Assembly (NCBI RefSeq): GCF_003334765.1
Contig: NZ_QOWT01000003.1
DNA: 64,000 nucleotides
Direction: 5' to 3' (one strand)
Origin: Escherichia coli
Lineage (GTDB): Bacteria > Pseudomonadota > Gammaproteobacteria > Enterobacterales > Enterobacteriaceae
A program made the translations under genes and the position numbers. Positions 20,647 through 28,335 of the stretch are shown piece after piece (within the stretch, counting starts at the first letter, position 1; the number at the start of each line of letters is the position of its first letter). Under the pieces are notes generated by a model. The model made no database searches. It was not told where the DNA came from and saw only the letters and a program-made list of their open reading frames with translations.

Positions 20647-22041
20647 TTAATCGTGAGCGCCGATTTCGCGCAGTTTACGACCTTTCATCAGATTACGTTC
20701 AATATGTTCCAGCGAAACGTGTTTGGTTTCCGGTACCAGCCACAATGTCAGCAGGATAAACAGTACGTTCAGAGCAGCATACACCCAGAAGGTGTTGGCG
20801 TTACCCAGCGTGTTGAGCATGGTCAGGAACGTTGCGCCAACGATCATGTTGGCAATCCAGTTGGTGGCAGTGGAGCAGGTGATGCCAAAATCGCGGCCTT
20901 TCAGCGGCTGAATTTCGGAGCACAGTACCCAAATCAGCGGACCGGCACTCATGGCAAAACCGACAATAAACATCAGCAGCATGGCGATGGCGAAATACTG
21001 CGCCGACGGAGAGTGGATACCGATATGCATCATTGTACCGAGTACGCCCATACCAGCAGCCATCACCAGGAAGCCCAGCGTTAGCGTTGGTTTACGTCCC
21101 CAGCGGTCAACAAGGCCGATTGCGATAAAGGTGGCAAGTACGTTGGTCAGGCCGACAATCACTGTCCCCCACATTTGCTCGGTGGTGTTGGTATAACCCG
21201 CCAGTTCGAAGATTTTCGGCGCGTAATACATGATGACGTTCATCCCGGTGAATTGCTGCATTACCTGCAATAGTACGCCAAGGAACACCGCGCGGCGGAA
21301 GTTGCTATTCTCTTTAAACAGCGCCCAGCCACTCTGTTTAACCTGCAAACTTTCACGGATTTCATCCAGTTCGCGTTTCGCTTCCGCGCTGGTGTCACGC
21401 AGGCGTAGCAGCACGCGTTCGGCATCAACAAAACGGCGTTTGGCGGCAAACCAACGTGGGCTGTCTGGCAGGAAGAAGACACCAATCAGCAGCAAAATTG
21501 CCGGGATGATAATCACACCCAGCATCCAGCGCCATGCACCGGTGTAGCTGAAGGCGGTATCAGAAAGATAAGCGCCGAGGATCCCGATAGTGATCATCAA
21601 CTGATACATCGAGATCATACTGCCGCGAATTTTTTCCGGCGCAATTTCAGAGAGGTACAGCGGTGCGGTATAAGAGGCCACACCCACTGCCAGCCCCAGC
21701 AAAACGCGGGAAAGAATCAGTACTTCAACGTTTGGCGCAGCAGCAGAGAACAGTGAACCGGCAACAAACAAGATTGCGCCGATCATCAGGCTCTTTTTGC
21801 GCCCGAGTTTAAAGGAGAGCCAGCCGCTGCCCACCGCACCGACTGCCGCACCGAACATCATGGAGCTTACGACCCATTCTTGCGTGTGCGAAGTAATCTG
21901 GAATTCATCTGCAATAAACGGCAGTGCGCCAGCAATTACACCGATATCCAGGCCAAAGAGTAATCCCGCCAGAGCGGCAAGGAAGCAGACGAAAAACGTC
22001 ATTGCCTTGTTTGACCGCCCCTGTTTTTTAGCGTCAGGCAT
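20647..22041 (-). CDS. galP: galactose:H+ symporter GalP (464 aa), MFS sugar porter
   Basis: [42 protein letters not shown]... recognised. Confidence 0.96.
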
Positions 22042-22104
22042 GATGCCCTCCAATATGGTTATTTTTTATTGTGAATTAAGATAGGTGAGTACGACGTAAA
22101 AAGA

Positions 22105-22139
22105 TGTGAAGCAAATCACATCAGTGTAATCGCTTACAC
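22105..22139 (-). promoter_or_regulatory. galP control region: perfect CRP palindrome TGTGA-AGCAAA-TCACA (22105-22120) and GalR/GalS-type operator GTGTAATCGCTTACAC (22124-22139)
   Basis: motifs read directly; galP is known to be regulated by CRP, GalR and GalS. Confidence 0.65.
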
Positions 22140-22426
22140 TAACATTTATCTTAGTTATGATTTAAGTGCATGAAAATAATTGAGTTATATCATCATAGAT
22201 TAAACGCTGTTATCTGCAATTAAGACTTTACTGAAAAGAAATGTAACAACTGTGAAAACCGAATAATAATATGAAAATATTACAAATCTTTGTCTGGTGT
22301 GGTTGGTGTAATCGGTTTCAGTAGCGATGATAATTTGCGGTAAAACGTGTTCAGGAAGAATGATGTTATTGTGCGGGCAGCTTTTTGCCGGATGCCGCGT
22401 GAACGCCTATCCACCGCGGTGAGGTA

Positions 22427-22454
22427 AAAGAAAAAGGCCAGCGCGAGGCTGGCC
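22427..22454 (-). terminator. metK rho-independent terminator
   Basis: GGCCAGCGCGAGGCTGGCC hairpin with T-run on the minus strand (AAAGAAAAA on plus), 23 nt after metK stop. Confidence 0.75.
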
Positions 22455-22476
22455 TTTGAAAGCAGGTGAAGAAAGA

Positions 22477-23631
22477 TTACTTCAGACCGGCAGCATCGCG
22501 CAGCAGCTGCGCTTTGTCGGTTTTTTCCCACGGGAAATGTTCGCGACCAAAGTGACCGTATGCTGCGGTTTCTTTGTAGATCGGGTGCAGCAGATCCAGC
22601 ATCTGAATCAGACCGTATGGACGCAGGTCAAAGAACTCACGTACCAGCAGAGTCAGTTGTTCAGAAGGCACTTTCTCGGTACCGAAAGTTTCCACCATGA
22701 TAGAGGTCGGTTCAGCCACGCCGATTGCGTAGGAAACCTGAATTTCACAACGATCGGCCAGGCCAGCAGCAACGATGTTTTTCGCGACATAACGTGCTGC
22801 GTACGCTGCGGAACGGTCCACTTTTGATGGATCTTTACCAGAGAATGCACCACCACCGTGACGTGCCATGCCGCCGTAGGTATCAACGATAATTTTACGA
22901 CCAGTCAGACCGCAGTCACCCATCGGGCCACCGATAACAAAACGACCGGTCGGGTTGATGAAGAATTTGGTGGCAGAAGTCAGCCATTCAGCCGGCAGAA
23001 TCGGCTTGATGATCTCTTCCATTACCGCTTCTTGCAGCGATTTCTGGTCGATTTCTTCAGAGTGCTGAGTGGAAAGCACGACAGCATCGATACCAACGAT
23101 TTTGCCGTCGTCATACTGGAAAGTCACCTGGCTTTTCGCGTCCGGGCGCAGCCACGGCAGAGTGCCGTTTTTACGCACTTCAGCCTGACGCTGTACCAGA
23201 CGGTGTGCATAGGTGATAGGCGCTGGCATCAGCACGTCGGTTTCATTGGTTGCGTAGCCAAACATCAGACCCTGGTCACCCGCGCCCTGTTCCAGCGGAT
23301 CGGCACGGTCAACGCCCTGGTTGATGTCAGGAGACTGTTTGCCGATAGCGCTCAGAACCGCACAGGAGTTAGCGTCAAAGCCCATGTCGGAATGTACATA
23401 GCCAATTTCGCGAACGGTGTTACGGGTGATCTCTTCGATGTCTACCCAGGCGCTGGTGGTGATTTCGCCGCCAACTAAAACCATGCCGGTTTTTACGTAG
23501 GTTTCGCAAGCAACGCGTGCTTTCGGATCCTGTTCGAGGATCGCGTCTAAAACGGCATCAGAGATTTGGTCAGCAATTTTGTCAGGATGCCCTTCAGAGA
23601 CGGACTCGGACGTAAAAAGGTGTTTTGCCAT
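22477..23631 (-). CDS. metK: S-adenosylmethionine synthetase (384 aa)
   Basis: [51 protein letters not shown]... recognised. Confidence 0.98.
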
Positions 23632-23671
23632 ATTTAATATCACCTAAAGAGAATTTGGTTAGCTCAAACTG

Positions 23672-23938
23672 TTGTGTGGATTTTCTGTGGTAGCGGATCC
23701 TACCACGACTCTGCAGGTTAAAAACACTGGCAGTCTGAGTGTTAATCGGTATGGATGGATTAACATCTGGATGGCTATTTTAGGTCAGTTCTTCACCCAA
23801 TTTCCACTTTTTTTTGAATCGTGTCTCATTCTGTTAAAAACGTGGCTGGAAATTTTTCCTGACAATGCTGGCATTCTGCGTATTTATCTTTTGCAATTTT
23901 CTGCCATTGTGGGGTATAAAACGCGGCGCGCGGCTTAA
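23672..23938 (+). CDS. yqgD: small hypothetical ORF upstream of and antisense to the metK promoter side; candidate yqgD
   Basis: 88-aa ORF in the position where K-12 annotates an 83-aa hypothetical yqgD; no independent coding evidence. Confidence 0.3.
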
Positions 23939-24150
23939 ATAAAAAGCACACGACGTTTCTTTCGTGTTGCCACTTCCAGCCGGGTTGAAATCAGAGTTTT
24001 GGCTTGTGGGTTCGTCTTAACAGGCGGCCGTGGAGGTGATACGAAATAATGAACCGTTGTCTGCTGCTTAACCTGTCTCACCGTTCTGGTGAAGATTCGT
24101 TCCCCGCACTCTGCATCTCTGCTTTGCATACCTGCCGATGTTATACCCAT
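23935..24150 (-). CDS. yqgC: small hypothetical ORF, candidate yqgC (71 aa)
   Basis: ORF of exactly 71 aa where K-12 annotates 71-aa yqgC; weak coding evidence. Confidence 0.35.
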
Positions 24151-24285
24151 CTCGGCGCTTCTCAGGATTCAAGAGCTGGTTACAGTTACTGAGGACTGAA
24201 CAAGGGCGCTCTTGTAAAAACAAGAGTTTTCTCGTGGTTTCGCCGAACTGTCACACTTACGTTCGGTTATGTGCTTAATAATGTT

Positions 24286-24417
24286 ATGAAAAAGAAACCG
24301 GTTGCGCAGTTGGAGCGTCAGCATTCACTGCTGGAAAATCCATGTGCTTATGGGTTGTTATCGCAGTTCCAGGCTGCGATAGTCGTTAACTGTTTTACAC
24401 TTAATAAAATAATTTGA
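24286..24417 (+). CDS. yqgB: small protein YqgB (43 aa), immediately upstream of speA
   Basis: ATG AAA AAG AAA CCG GTT GCG CAG... translates to [43 protein letters not shown]; stop 8 nt before the speA ATG; not in ORF track because under 60 aa. Confidence 0.8.
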
Positions 24418-24425
24418 GGTTCGCT

Positions 24426-26402
24426 ATGTCTGACGACATGTCTATGGGTTTGCCTTCGTCAGCGGGCGAACACGGTGTACTACGCTCCATGCAGGAGGTT
24501 GCAATGAGCTCCCAGGAAGCCAGCAAGATGCTGCGTACTTACAATATTGCCTGGTGGGGCAATAACTACTATGACGTTAACGAGCTGGGCCACATTAGCG
24601 TGTGCCCGGACCCGGACGTCCCGGAAGCTCGCGTCGATCTCGCGCAGTTAGTGAAAACTCGTGAAGCACAGGGCCAGCGTCTGCCTGCACTGTTCTGTTT
24701 CCCACAGATCCTGCAGCACCGTTTGCGTTCCATTAACGCCGCGTTCAAACGAGCGCGGGAATCCTACGGCTATAACGGCGATTACTTCCTCGTTTATCCG
24801 ATCAAAGTTAACCAGCACCGCCGCGTGATTGAGTCCCTGATTCATTCGGGCGAACCGCTGGGCCTGGAGGCCGGTTCCAAAGCGGAGTTGATGGCGGTGC
24901 TGGCACATGCTGGCATGACCCGTAGCGTCATCGTCTGCAACGGTTATAAGGACCGCGAATATATCCGCCTGGCATTAATTGGCGAGAAGATGGGCCACAA
25001 GGTCTATCTGGTCATTGAGAAGATGTCAGAAATTGCCATTGTGCTGGATGAAGCAGAACGTCTGAATGTCGTTCCTCGTCTGGGCGTGCGTGCACGTCTG
25101 GCTTCGCAGGGCTCGGGTAAATGGCAGTCCTCTGGCGGGGAAAAATCGAAGTTCGGCCTGGCGGCGACTCAGGTACTGCAACTGGTTGAAACGCTGCGTG
25201 AAGCCGGGCGTCTCGACAGCCTGCAACTGCTGCACTTCCACCTCGGTTCGCAGATGGCGAATATTCGCGATATCGCGACAGGCGTTCGTGAATCCGCGCG
25301 TTTCTATGTTGAGCTGCACAAGCTGGGCGTCAATATTCAGTGCTTCGACGTCGGCGGCGGTCTGGGCGTGGACTATGAAGGCACCCGTTCGCAGTCCGAC
25401 TGTTCGGTGAACTACGGCCTCAATGAATACGCCAACAACATCATCTGGGCGATTGGTGATGCGTGTGAAGAAAATGGTCTGCCGCATCCGACGGTAATCA
25501 CCGAATCGGGTCGTGCGGTGACTGCGCATCACACCGTGCTGGTGTCGAATATCATCGGCGTGGAACGTAACGAATACACGGTGCCGACCGCGCCTGCAGA
25601 AGACGCACCGCGCGCCCTGCAAAGCATGTGGGAAACCTGGCAGGAGATGCACGAACCGGGAACTCGCCGTTCTCTGCGTGAATGGTTACACGACAGCCAG
25701 ATGGATCTGCACGATATTCATATCGGCTACTCTTCCGGCACCTTTAGCCTGCAAGAACGCGCATGGGCTGAGCAGCTTTATTTGAGCATGTGCCATGAAG
25801 TGCAAAAGCAGCTGGATCCGCAAAACCGTGCTCATCGTCCGATTATCGACGAGCTGCAGGAACGTATGGCGGACAAAATGTACGTCAACTTCTCGCTGTT
25901 CCAGTCGATGCCGGATGCGTGGGGGATCGACCAGTTGTTCCCGGTTCTGCCGCTGGAAGGGCTGGATCAAGTGCCGGAACGCCGCGCTGTGCTGCTGGAT
26001 ATTACCTGTGACTCTGACGGTGCTATTGATCACTATATTGATGGTGATGGTATTGCCACGACAATGCCAATGCCGGAGTACGATCCAGAGAATCCGCCGA
26101 TGCTCGGTTTCTTCATGGTCGGCGCATATCAGGAGATCCTCGGCAACATGCACAACCTGTTCGGTGATACCGAAGCGGTTGACGTGTTCGTCTTCCCTGA
26201 CGGCAGCGTAGAAGTAGAACTGTCTGACGAAGGCGATACCGTGGCGGATATGCTGCAATATGTACAGCTCGATCCGAAAACGTTGTTAACCCAGTTCCGT
26301 GATCAAGTGAAGAAAACCGATCTTGATGCTGAACTGCAACAACAGTTCCTTGAAGAGTTCGAGGCAGGTTTGTACGGTTATACCTATCTTGAAGATGAAT
26401 AA
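24426..26402 (+). CDS. speA: biosynthetic arginine decarboxylase (658 aa)
   Basis: [55 protein letters not shown]... recognised. Confidence 0.97.
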
Positions 26403-26419
26403 TTAAGATTATTCCGCTG

Positions 26420-26460
26420 GCGGGTCGATTTATTTACGTAAATCGGCCCGCTTTCTTTTT
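26420..26460 (+). terminator. rho-independent terminator after speA
   Basis: GCGGGTCGATTTATTTACGTAAATCGGCCCGC hairpin followed by TTTCTTTTT. Confidence 0.75.
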
Positions 26461-26547
26461 ATATATTCTTAAAAATAATTTAGCTGCTTTTCTTATTAAA
26501 TAATCCCCCTACAATCGCTGCATTAATTAAATACAGAGGGAACGGTT

Positions 26548-27279
26548 ATGAAAAAATGGAAAGTACGTAGCGCGTTGATAGCATTAGTCGTGCTGCTGGC
26601 CGGTTGTTCCAGTAATGCGCAGTATAATAGCAGTACATCGGGCAATGTCGGCACCGCCTGGGGTGGGGATGTGCACTCATCGGTTCAGGGCGTATCTGCT
26701 GAGCGAGCCTGGCGCGATCCGGCAGAGATGATCGTTATTAGTTATTCGACTACTGTTCCTTCGGGCTACGACCGCGTTTATAGCATTCGTATTAACGAAC
26801 TGGAATATGCTATTCGCGATGGTAATTTTAATTCTCTACCTATTACGCGGGTTTATGATTCATCCAATAATGAACCACGCTATATTGTCCATGCCAGAAT
26901 CGGAATGAATTATCAATTATATATCCGTAATTACAGTCGTAACACCAACTACGAGATCGTTGCTACGGTTGATGGCCTGGATGTGCTGAACGGCAAGCAA
27001 GGTTCGCTGAATAACAATGGCTATATTGTGAATGCCGGAGATTCGTTAGCGATTAAAGGATTCCGCAAAGATAAACATACCGAAGCGGCTTTTCAGTTCG
27101 CCAACGTTGCTGATTCCTACGCAGCCAATTCGGCGCAAGGCGATGTGCGTAATACCGGTGTAATCGGCTTTGCCGCCTTTGAATTACAAGGCACGGCGCA
27201 AAACGCGCTGCCACCGTGCTCTGGACAAGCGTTTCCGGCGGACAACAATGGCTATGCGCCGCCACCGTGTCGGAAATAG
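26548..27279 (+). CDS. uncharacterised lipoprotein (243 aa), not part of K-12 gene order as I know it
   Basis: RBS GAGGGA 8 nt upstream of ATG; signal peptide and lipobox MKKWKVRSALIALVVLLAG-C; N/Y/S-rich body; C-terminal ALPPCSGQAFPADNNGYAPPPCRK with two PPC motifs; lower GC than flanking genes; flanked by terminators. Confidence 0.75.
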   Translation: MKKWKVRSALIALVVLLAGCSSNAQYNSSTSGNVGTAWGGDVHSSVQGVSAERAWRDPAEMIVISYSTTVPSGYDRVYSIRINELEYAIRDGNFNSLPITRVYDSSNNEPRYIVHARIGMNYQLYIRNYSRNTNYEIVATVDGLDVLNGKQGSLNNNGYIVNAGDSLAIKGFRKDKHTEAAFQFANVADSYAANSAQGDVRNTGVIGFAAFELQGTAQNALPPCSGQAFPADNNGYAPPPCRK

Positions 27280-27346
27280 TAACCTCGCTTGATGCCTCGC
27301 CCATTTAAGGCGATAATTAGCACAAAATTGTGTTTCGCAAATCCAA

Positions 27347-27387
27347 CCCTTCCTCGTCGGGCCTAACGACGCGGAAGGGTTTTTTTA
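27347..27387 (+). terminator. rho-independent terminator after the lipoprotein gene, abutting the speB RBS
   Basis: CCCTTCCTCGTCGG-GCCTAA-CGACGCGGAAGGG hairpin followed by TTTTTTT. Confidence 0.75.
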
Positions 27388-27414
27388 TATCGACTTTGTA
27401 ATAGGAGTCCATCC

Positions 27415-28335
27415 ATGAGCACCTTAGGTCATCAATACGATAACTCACTGGTTTCCAACGCCTTTGGTTTTTTACGCCTGCCGATGAACTTCCAGCCGTA
27501 TGACAGCGATGCTGACTGGGTAATTACCGGCGTGCCGTTCGATATGGCCACTTCTGGTCGTGCGGGTGGACGCCACGGTCCGGCGGCGATCCGTCAGGTT
27601 TCGACGAATCTGGCCTGGGAACACAACCGCTTCCCGTGGAATTTCGACATGCGCGAGCGTCTGAACGTGGTGGACTGCGGCGATCTGGTGTATGCCTTCG
27701 GCGATGCTCGTGAGATGAGCGAGAAGCTGCAGGCGCATGCCGAAAAGCTGCTGGCTGCCGGTAAGCGTATGCTCTCCTTCGGTGGTGACCACTTTGTTAC
27801 CCTGCCGCTGCTGCGTGCTCATGCGAAGCATTTCGGCAAAATGGCGCTGGTACACTTTGACGCCCACACCGATACCTATGCGAACGGTTGTGAATTTGAC
27901 CACGGCACCATGTTCTATACCGCGCCGAAAGAAGGTCTGATCGACCCGAATCACTCCGTACAGATTGGTATTCGTACCGAGTTTGATAAAGACAACGGCT
28001 TTACCGTACTGGACGCCTGCCAGGTGAACGATCGCGGCGTGGATGACGTTATCGCCCAAGTGAAACAGATTGTGGGTGATATGCCGGTTTACCTGACCTT
28101 TGATATCGACTGCCTGGATCCTGCTTTCGCGCCGGGAACCGGTACGCCAGTAATTGGCGGCCTGACCTCCGATCGCGCTATTAAACTGGTACGCGGCCTG
28201 AAAGATCTCAACATTGTTGGGATGGACGTAGTGGAAGTGGCTCCGGCATACGATCAGTCGGAAATCACCGCTCTGGCTGCGGCGACGCTGGCGCTGGAAA
28301 TGCTGTATATCCAGGCGGCGAAAAAGGGCGAGTAA
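27415..28335 (+). CDS. speB: agmatinase (306 aa)
   Basis: [61 protein letters not shown]... recognised. Confidence 0.97.

Follow-up and report, generated by a model that had tools for sequence, protein, structure and literature searches.

A small open reading frame (ORF), yqgB, ends directly in front of speA, the gene for the biosynthetic arginine decarboxylase (ADC), in the divergent metK/speA region of Escherichia coli. This raises the question whether yqgB encodes a protein of its own or serves the expression of its neighbor. For the analysis we used a stretch of 64,000 nt from the E. coli contig NZ_QOWT01000003.1 (the window; positions are given in its coordinates and features lie on the plus strand if not stated otherwise), in which this region surrounds positions 24286-24430. 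Converted to window coordinates, the RefSeq gene order is metK (minus strand), yqgD, yqgG (24049-24192), yqgB (24286-24417), speA (24426-26402), a hypothetical ORF and speB. The original prediction, a yqgB of 43 codons that ends 8 nt before the speA start, was borne out by direct reading of the DNA and by the ORF listing, which give 43 sense codons with the ATG at 24286-24288 and the stop codon TGA at 24415-24417. Its end coordinate of 24430, however, runs into speA, since the ORF closes at 24417. The 8 nt between the yqgB stop and the first start codon of speA (ATG1) are GGTTCGCT (24418-24425). The stop overlaps the Shine-Dalgarno (SD) sequence of ATG1 (TGAGG, 24415-24419), and this GAGG at 24416-24419 is the sole SD-like element for ATG1. 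yqgB itself starts without an SD. An in-frame GTG at 24271, five codons upstream of the yqgB ATG, would give a version of 48 aa. The context of the yqgB start (24270-24288), which includes this GTG and a -10-like TACAAT, is conserved and reads GTGTTTTACAATGATATG in most species.

speA has two start codons. ATG1 at 24426 gives a protein of 658 aa (SpeA-74), and ATG2 (Met27) at 24504, in frame and 78 nt downstream of ATG1, one of 632 aa (SpeA-70). ATG2 has its own SD, GGAGG, at 24494-24498. Both starts have been documented by Ribo-RET, INRI-seq and N-terminomics. Because of the second in-frame start 78 nt downstream, the 8-nt spacing between yqgB and speA concerns the long SpeA proteoform alone.

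yqgB is an annotated gene. RefSeq names it 'acid stress response protein YqgB', directly upstream of speA, and the acid phenotype is said to come from work of Hobbs and colleagues in 2010. The idea of an upstream open reading frame (uORF) is also in print (Adams et al., 2021; PMC7815308), so that yqgB as a feature is not novel. Many E. coli chromosomes carry the locus with 100% identity, and it was found in 5,426 of 5,426 complete genomes. YqgB matches the Pfam family PF11036 over residues 1-43 of 43 (E 4.3e-33) and the NCBIfam family NF033844 (small_YqgB) with 90.1 bits at a cut-off of 35. Its position between metK and speA is conserved in Enterobacteriaceae and is the same in Serratia. In a profile search, annotated family members were limited to Enterobacteriaceae and Serratia, save one record labelled Vagococcus sp.; searches for homologues with a single sequence reached only Escherichia, or 14 representatives in all, and the wider reach needed the profile.

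Open frame and stop position of yqgB in Enterobacteriaceae

For the comparison across species, genomes were scanned with SpeA residues 1-300. This yielded 80 species of Enterobacteriaceae, of which 79 loci with upstream DNA were used, including that of E. coli (L001). An ORF that starts with M[KNE]xKP[VI]A is open in all 79 species, and its length ranges from 38 to 91 codons (38, 43, 45, 47-49, 55, 60, 68 and 87-91). The yqgB stop is in every case one of two invariant TGAs which flank ATG1. Site A, at -11 to -9 relative to ATG1, is used in 56 species and site B, at +6 to +8, in 23 species. Site A (TGAGGTTCGCTATG) is invariant in an alignment of 30 species and identical in 54 of the 56 species that stop there. 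Site B lies at 24431-24433 in the window, within ATGTCTGAC / ATGTCTGA, and overlaps codons 2-3 of speA; the speA codons at this site, TCT and GAC, are invariant in all species. Beyond the 23 species, site B is also the uORF stop in Serratia and in the outgroup L086. The stop lies at most 11 nt from ATG1 in all species, many insertions and deletions notwithstanding. Coupled gene pairs are recognized by a stop near the downstream start. Here the gap is 8 nt in the window, and measured from the A of ATG1 the stop codon ends 8 nt upstream or 8 nt downstream in each of the 79 species.

Switches and substitutions were counted on a neighbor-joining tree built from the body of speA with 78 taxa. According to the tree, site A and site B replaced one another at least 13 times independently and the ORF length changed at least 19 times, with not a single move into the third frame, in which yqgB would already terminate 15-102 nt short of ATG1. 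Insertions of 15-150 nt that arose independently remain open, with the frame ending at either TGA. Among 679 substitutions in codons 1-39, none created a stop in the yqgB frame, compared with 11.3 expected (P about 1e-5). The control frames +1 and +2 gained 18 stops (25.7 expected) and 35 stops (39.7 expected), respectively. A conservative test with 29 independent close pairs gave 0 stops compared with 4.7 expected (P 0.009). The arrangement extends beyond the 79 species: Serratia proteamaculans has a yqgB of 47 codons which overlaps speA by 8 nt, and the distant lineage L086 has a uORF of 45 codons, ending at site B, whose peptide is almost unrecognizable. From this comparison of sequences yqgB is more than a chance ORF, and the pattern suggests that selection keeps its AUG, an uninterrupted frame and a stop which abuts AUG1 of speA.

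A few sequences deviate from this pattern. In one isolate, K. pneumoniae IS43 (protein P0038), yqgB is fused in frame to SpeA; it is the sole case of the third frame and could represent a sequencing error or a rare variant. A protein search with the SpeA N-terminus returned mostly fragments from frameshifted assemblies, and one member of this set, the Yersinia-like L082, carries an in-frame TAG in the uORF that is indistinguishable from a sequencing error. The speA of the more distant L083 (N-terminus 74% identical) has no N-terminal extension and a strong SD, AAGGAG. It follows an unrelated uORF of 22 codons (L083:1430-1510), whose TGA overlaps the speA ATG (ATGA), which could be independent coupling or chance.

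Constraint on peptide, nucleotides and predicted RNA structure

In the alignment of YqgB proteins, apparent peptide motifs can be seen, namely KKPVAQ, Q12, L16, VYGLLS and AIVVNCFTL. The third codon positions, however, are frozen as well. Among 74 unique sequences, the codons GGG TTG TTA TCG were found in 73-74, GCG ATA in 72-74, AAA in 74 and CCG in 73. The ratio of nonsynonymous to synonymous substitution rates (dN/dS; Nei-Gojobori, pooled over 29 independent species pairs) is 0.87 for yqgB and 0.014 for speA codons 41-600, and the synonymous rate (dS) is 0.075 and 0.358, respectively. Split by part, the variable codons of yqgB have a dN/dS of 0.95 and its conserved blocks one of 0.70. Purifying selection on the YqgB peptide was not detected in these 29 species pairs. 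The mean synonymous-codon entropy of conserved residues is 0.245 bits in yqgB compared with 0.91 bits in speA codons 41-600 (permutation P<5e-5), and 60% of the yqgB codons for conserved residues have zero synonymous variation, compared with 1.4% in the same part of speA.

The variants in length point in the same direction. Insertions in yqgB are placed between AACTGTTTTA and TACACTT. The inverted repeat TATACCC...GGGTATA borders them on both sides and would fold into an additional hairpin. TACACTT is kept in these variants and read as GYTLS or VYTF rather than CFTL. Similarly, TGCGATAGT is read as N-C-D-S in L086 rather than A-A-I-V. Residues 27-30 can be charged, proline or aromatic, with no consistent fold or membrane helix, and the C-terminal tail is the least conserved part of YqgB, both in sequence and in length. 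Frozen synonymous sites, together with motifs that change their reading frame between variants, suggest that yqgB is conserved at the level of the RNA and not of the peptide. It appears to evolve as a non-coding RNA under constraint would, with the added requirement of an open frame that closes at ATG1.

The beginning of speA shows a similar constraint. In codons 2-26, dS is 0.049 compared with 0.358 in the speA body, and dN/dS is 0.40 compared with 0.014; the synonymous sites of codons 1-20 are frozen. The N-terminal extension of SpeA-74 (codons 1-26, 24426-24503) therefore looks to be conserved mainly at the RNA level, as far as its codons indicate, and this questions its reading as a 'secretion signal'. 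By eye, the extension is without the hydrophobic core of a Sec signal peptide.

The RNA structure was predicted with RNAalifold on an alignment of 30 species (A1). Inside yqgB, helices 2 to 4 (24296-24356) are predicted to pair codons 4-8 with codons 20-24 and include a small hairpin, CAGC/GCUG, of 24318-22 with 24330-34. One compensatory pair was found in these helices (AU in 19 species, GC in 6) and the other pairs are almost invariant. A further predicted hairpin, UUAUCGC/GCGAUAG with a variable loop (24358-24382; arms 24358-64 and 24376-82), covers the 'GLLS...AIV' codons, and all seven of its pairs are essentially invariant in the 30 species. The predicted helices within yqgB coincide with its 'conserved residues'. 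Helix 6 would connect yqgB with speA. Its predicted 5' arm (24392-24401) comprises G24392, U24393 and UACACU (24396-24401) in yqgB codons 36-39, and its 3' arm GGUGUACUAC (24474-24483) lies in speA codons 17-20, with GGUGUA of codons 17-19 pairing with UACACU. Helix 7 (24419-24471) is predicted over ATG1 itself. It has 16 bp, with the 5' arm GUUCGCUAUGUCUGACGA (24419-36), the 3' arm UCGUCAGCGGGCGAAC (24456-71) and a loop of 19 nt; the 5' arm starts 2 nt past the yqgB stop, and 13 of the 16 bp never vary according to RNAalifold and pair counts. Helix 8 (24484-24509) is a small predicted hairpin which holds the SD of ATG2 (GGAGG, 24494-98) in its loop, with ATG2 at 24504-06. Changes in this helix are one-sided and pair-preserving only.

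The E. coli sequence alone gives the same fold, with a minimum free energy of -36.5 kcal/mol (z -2.1); helix 7 alone has -21.2 kcal/mol. In the ensemble, the probability of being unpaired is 0.06-0.08 for the SD of ATG1 and 0.11 for the G of AUG1, and it ranges from 0.14 to 0.76 for the SD bases of ATG2. In the structure of A1, 98.5% of the cells are paired, compared with 29-48% when the partners are slid. A search of Rfam gave no relevant match at E<=1 for 22000-27500. The idea that CCGAAC (24244) pairs over a distance with GGTTCG of the SD region was rejected, as the upstream hairpin covaries with its local partner and the SD region is invariant.

A probable translated leader acting in cis and its rivals

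Experimental data for this region are available from a Term-seq study (Adams et al., 2021; PMC7815308), in which yqgB-speA appears among the candidate uORF pairs, with a 3' end close by that depends on Rho. Rho-dependent termination in the 5' untranslated region (UTR) of speA was observed there by lacZ fusions and northern blots. The study names the transcript yqgG-yqgB-speAB and cites YqgB among the experimentally validated small ORFs. One of its 3' ends, K-12 3085854, corresponds to window position 24483, 57 nt into speA, and has a Rho score of 3.1 and the flag 'uORF'; another, K-12 3086295, corresponds to 24042. Helix 6 has its last paired base at 24483, and 24042 lies 4 nt downstream of the predicted helix over the SD of yqgG. 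On the predicted structures, both 3' ends are consistent with exonucleolytic trimming back to stable structures. In Salmonella, deletion of yqgB lowered speA and speB mRNA, ADC and spermidine, and the phenotype was reversed by putrescine or spermidine, as described in a paper from 2026. Acid and colistin phenotypes of the deletion have been reported, and the paper from 2026 treats YqgB as a drug target and includes a screen for 'YqgB inhibitors'. In an overexpression screen for arrest peptides, YqgB was grouped with the inducers of aggregation and heat shock and not with the arrest-like (cold-shock) responders. The start of yqgB was detected by INRI-seq in vitro, and the selection against stops in its frame lends indirect support to translation.

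On balance, yqgB is probably a translated leader which acts in cis, and whose coupling to speA opens AUG1 and limits termination by Rho. With yqgG as the first, it would be the second translated uORF in a structured leader of ~500 nt at the beginning of the yqgG-yqgB-speAB mRNA, in which AUG1 and its SD would be buried in a stable and conserved structure (helices 6 and 7). Ribosomes on yqgB would melt helices 2 to 6 and also the lower part of helix 7. A ribosome that stops at the UGA 8 nt before or 5 nt after AUG1 would occupy the 5' arm of helix 7 and expose AUG1, where it might reinitiate or clear the path for a new 30S subunit. In this way the coupling would drive synthesis of the long SpeA-74, and AUG2, with its own exposed and strong SD, would initiate SpeA-70 largely independently. 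Ribosome cover from yqgB into early speA would at the same time deny access to Rho, with less termination as a result. Without this cover, transcripts would end early and be trimmed to the structure of helices 6 and 7, which would explain the 3' end at +57. Loss of yqgB would lower speAB expression, from which the acid and colistin phenotypes would follow with no need of a protein acting in trans. The step of unmasking or reinitiation, the effect against Rho and the positive sign of the coupling are what we infer in this chain.

Should YqgB instead be a free-standing small protein that works in trans, as an 'acid stress response protein' or 'virulence promoting factor', its place next to speA would be ordinary operon packing. 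Such a protein is what the families PF11036 and NF033844 and their annotation imply, and it would agree with the citation of YqgB among validated small ORFs (Adams et al., 2021), with the acid and colistin phenotypes of the deletion and with the treatment as a drug target in the paper from 2026. We regard it as unlikely. For yqgB as a whole dN/dS is 0.87 and for its variable codons alone 0.95, the length varies from 38 to 91 residues with an unconserved tail, and the motifs are conserved as nucleotides, with frozen synonymous sites and reading in other frames in the variants. Residues 27-30 are too varied for a consistent fold or membrane helix, overexpression led to an aggregation-type heat-shock response, loss of speA/speB expression would be expected to give the same phenotypes as the deletion, which polyamines reverse, and the 2026 paper mentions no complementation. 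A leader that is purely RNA (riboswitch-like, protein-binding or a Rho/attenuator element) with the yqgB frame as an incidental by-product of nucleotide conservation, seems clearly unlikely. The nucleotide conservation over the whole 500-nt leader, its several covarying hairpins, the frozen synonymous sites and a dN/dS near 1 would all fit an RNA element. An incidental frame, however, is hard to reconcile with 0 new stops in the yqgB frame compared with 11.3 expected, when the other two frames gain stops at the expected rate, with insertions of 15-150 nt whose frames remain open up to one of the two TGAs, with 13 switches of the stop site, none of them into the third frame, or with initiation at the yqgB AUG in vitro.

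The original prediction had considered a leader peptide or a translational coupling element. Coupling has gained support from the stop position, the predicted hairpin over ATG1 and the Salmonella deletion, whereas a metabolite-sensing leader peptide has lost ground through dN/dS of ~0.9, the variable tail, the frame-shifted motifs and the aggregation signature. That YqgB is an arrest or leader peptide of the SpeFL, TnaC or MdtU type, or an amino-acid attenuator, and stalls on polyamine, arginine or agmatine, now appears very improbable. It lies among genes of the polyamine pathway with Rho-dependent termination near, and speF and mdtJI, other polyamine genes, are controlled in this manner. However, peptide-level selection was not detected, the stop follows the conserved blocks at anything from 0 to about 50 codons and overexpression gave no arrest-like cold-shock signature. 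There is also no run of Arg codons: Arg occurs once in E. coli YqgB, and no codon is repeated in a run. Nor is there a terminator-like site downstream of yqgB; the only one on this strand (24208-27) is located upstream, after yqgG. Models of an arrest peptide or of classical attenuation were rejected, since they lack peptide conservation, a regulatory codon run and a downstream terminator. A coupling of the opposite sign, in which ribosomes at the UGA occlude AUG1 and lower SpeA-74 or shift the balance to SpeA-70, would be compatible with a stop that overlaps the SD, or with an AUG1 within the footprint of the terminating ribosome, and with two proteoforms that have separate starts. Deletion of yqgB, however, lowers and does not raise speA/speB mRNA and ADC, and AUG1 is poorly accessible in the predicted structure unless it is opened, which makes an inhibitory yqgB quite improbable.

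Several points weigh against the translated leader. A peak at the yqgB start was not seen in vivo in LB. Ribo-RET and INRI-seq show initiation peaks at ATG1 without ribosomes elongating through yqgB, so ATG1 initiates alone to some extent. The dN/dS of yqgB may be inflated by a dS that is depressed by RNA constraint, and weak selection on the peptide may act in the conserved blocks. As for the deletion in Salmonella, we found no mention of complementation or of a polarity control in the 2026 paper, and the effect could stem from lost RNA structure and not from lost translation. A mutational test of the coupling between yqgB and speA was not found in the accessible literature. With regard to the structure, two-sided changes were found in only 4 of 56 pairs, with stems that barely vary. 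The structure of A1 is plausible, not proven by covariation, and covariation cannot prove helices 5 to 7 because they are almost invariant; this invariance could equally reflect the binding site of a protein or ligand. Finally, Serratia-like and Yersinia-like leaders have kept the stop position of the uORF but not the lower half of helix 7, and in the Serratia-like ones the upper part of helix 7 alone is recognizable.

A more far-reaching version of the translated leader may also be considered, which we advance tentatively and at slightly less than an even chance. YqgB would then be not a functional protein but a ribosome relay, in which a uORF indifferent to its peptide and the RNA-constrained first 26 codons of speA carry ribosomes over a hitherto unrecognized leader RNA that is conserved throughout the family, set the ratio of SpeA-74 to SpeA-70 and gate Rho at speAB. 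The phenotypes and the pharmacology of 'YqgB inhibitors' would be effects in cis on polyamine synthesis.

New in this study are the comparative evidence for selection on translation and on the position of termination, and not on the peptide, and a structural model for the coupling to SpeA-74. Both conflict with the current annotation as a 'stress protein'. If the role of yqgB lies in cis and at the RNA level, acid sensitivity and the colistin phenotype would be polyamine phenotypes of speA/speB, and interpretations directed at the protein would need re-examination. The model also offers mechanisms for the origin of the 74- and 70-kDa forms of arginine decarboxylase, for their ratio and for the attenuation of speA by Rho. 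It can be assumed that other families of 'conserved small proteins' may likewise be by-products of structured leaders.

Upstream leader, neighboring genes and known systems

The whole speA leader of ~500 nt (23885-24510) is conserved at the nucleotide level across genera of Enterobacteriaceae and contains several covarying hairpins. As modelled here, it is an undescribed structured leader RNA without an Rfam family. A likely promoter of yqgG-yqgB-speAB, judged by its elements, is located at 23891-23920, with TTGCAA at 23891-96, a spacer of 18 nt and TATAAA at 23915-20, in a block that is almost invariant in the 79 species. The published 5' UTR fusion uses a transcript start at ~23928, and its forward cloning primer GCGCGGCTTAAATAAAAAGC begins at 23928 (Adams et al., 2021), which implies a length of about 500 nt for the leader. 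Its first predicted helix (23971-24038) covers the SD of yqgG: CCACUUCC (23971-78) pairs with the SD GGAGGUGA (24031-38) and encloses a strongly covarying hairpin of 24009-16 with 24023-29. In an RNAalifold analysis of 34 species, 98% of the cells of this helix are paired, and five of the seven pairs of the inner hairpin have compensatory changes.

yqgG, the first uORF, has 47 codons in the window and is annotated by RefSeq. It is open, with 43-64 codons, in 78 of the 79 aligned species, and a tagged YqgG protein was examined by Weaver et al. Between yqgG and yqgB, a consensus scan revealed a terminator-like hairpin, GCUCUUG/CAAGAGU, followed by UUUUCUCGUGGUUUC (24208-24241, stem 24208-27). 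The stem covaries between CTCTTG/CAAGAG and CTCCTG/CAGGAG, with a variable loop and an invariant tail, and yqgG ends 16 nt upstream of it. In this model yqgG and the hairpin look like an attenuator layer upstream of yqgB. A second covarying hairpin, CCGAAC/GUUCGG (24243-24266), is located 20 nt upstream of the yqgB ATG; one of its pairs is AU in 17 species, GC in 7 and GU in 5. The annotated antisense ORF yqgC (23935-24150, minus strand) overlaps yqgG. It was found without ribosome density and without a tagged protein (Weaver et al.) and is probably not a gene.

Two further regulatory elements were considered. An internal promoter within yqgB (TTAACT-16-AATAAT) was rejected as a conserved element, since its -10 sits in the variable tail. 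Control of speA by PurR was reportedly described by He and colleagues in 1993. With the 16-mer PurR consensus, no match at <=3 mismatches was found anywhere in the window; the closest PurR-box-like sequence of the leader, AAGAAACCGGTTGCGC (24292-24307), has 5 mismatches to the consensus and lies on the invariant yqgB codons 3-8. A PurR operator may offer a reason at the DNA level for the invariance of these codons. The hypothetical ORF between speA and speB (26548-27279) encodes 243 aa with a lipoprotein-type N-terminus (LLAGC). This protein has no match in Pfam, and its sole NCBIfam match is far under the cut-off. The interval is present at >=80% coverage in 3,551 of 5,426 complete E. coli genomes and thus represents a variable insertion in the speAB operon.

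Among known systems, the closest precedent for yqgB by analogy seems to be orf34/speFL in the leader of speF, and mdtU-mdtJI would be another. Like yqgB, orf34/speFL of speF-potE in Salmonella and E. coli precedes a polyamine decarboxylase gene in a leader of ~500 nt, and its translation blocks premature termination by Rho and unfolds a structure that sequesters the ribosome-binding site. It acts as an arrest peptide that senses ornithine. In contrast to yqgB, which abuts the speA start, orf34 is located at the 5' end of its leader, hundreds of nt from speF, and regulatory Arg codons form part of a conserved domain of its peptide, whereas yqgB is without peptide-level selection. mdtU of mdtJI, the operon of a spermidine exporter, comes from the Term-seq study in which yqgB-speA was flagged as well (Adams et al., 2021; PMC7815308). 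There too, translation of a uORF controls premature Rho termination in a polyamine-related operon. Its reported regulation by spermidine probably works via the conserved C-terminus of MdtU, which differs from yqgB, as the C-terminus is the least conserved part of YqgB.

The leaders trpL, hisL, pheL and tnaC share with yqgB a short translated ORF in a structured leader and a terminator-like hairpin (here at 24208-41). Unlike these, yqgB has no regulatory codon run, its peptide is unconserved and the hairpin lies upstream of it. The eukaryotic uORFs of polyamine genes (AdoMetDC MAGDIS, ODC and plant ADC) are also located in long structured 5' leaders; they are not homologous to yqgB and rely on scanning and reinitiation with polyamine-dependent stalling of the peptide. 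Classical coupling by termination and reinitiation, with unmasking of the ribosome-binding site, is represented by trpE-trpD, trpB-trpA and the coat-replicase pair of RNA phages. In these cases, as for yqgB and speA, the upstream stop lies within a few nt of the downstream start or overlaps it, and this start is buried in structure, which is predicted here. The difference is that yqgB apparently has no protein function of its own and that speA has a second, independent start, and coupling would therefore control the SpeA-74 proteoform and the access of Rho, and not the stoichiometry of two proteins.

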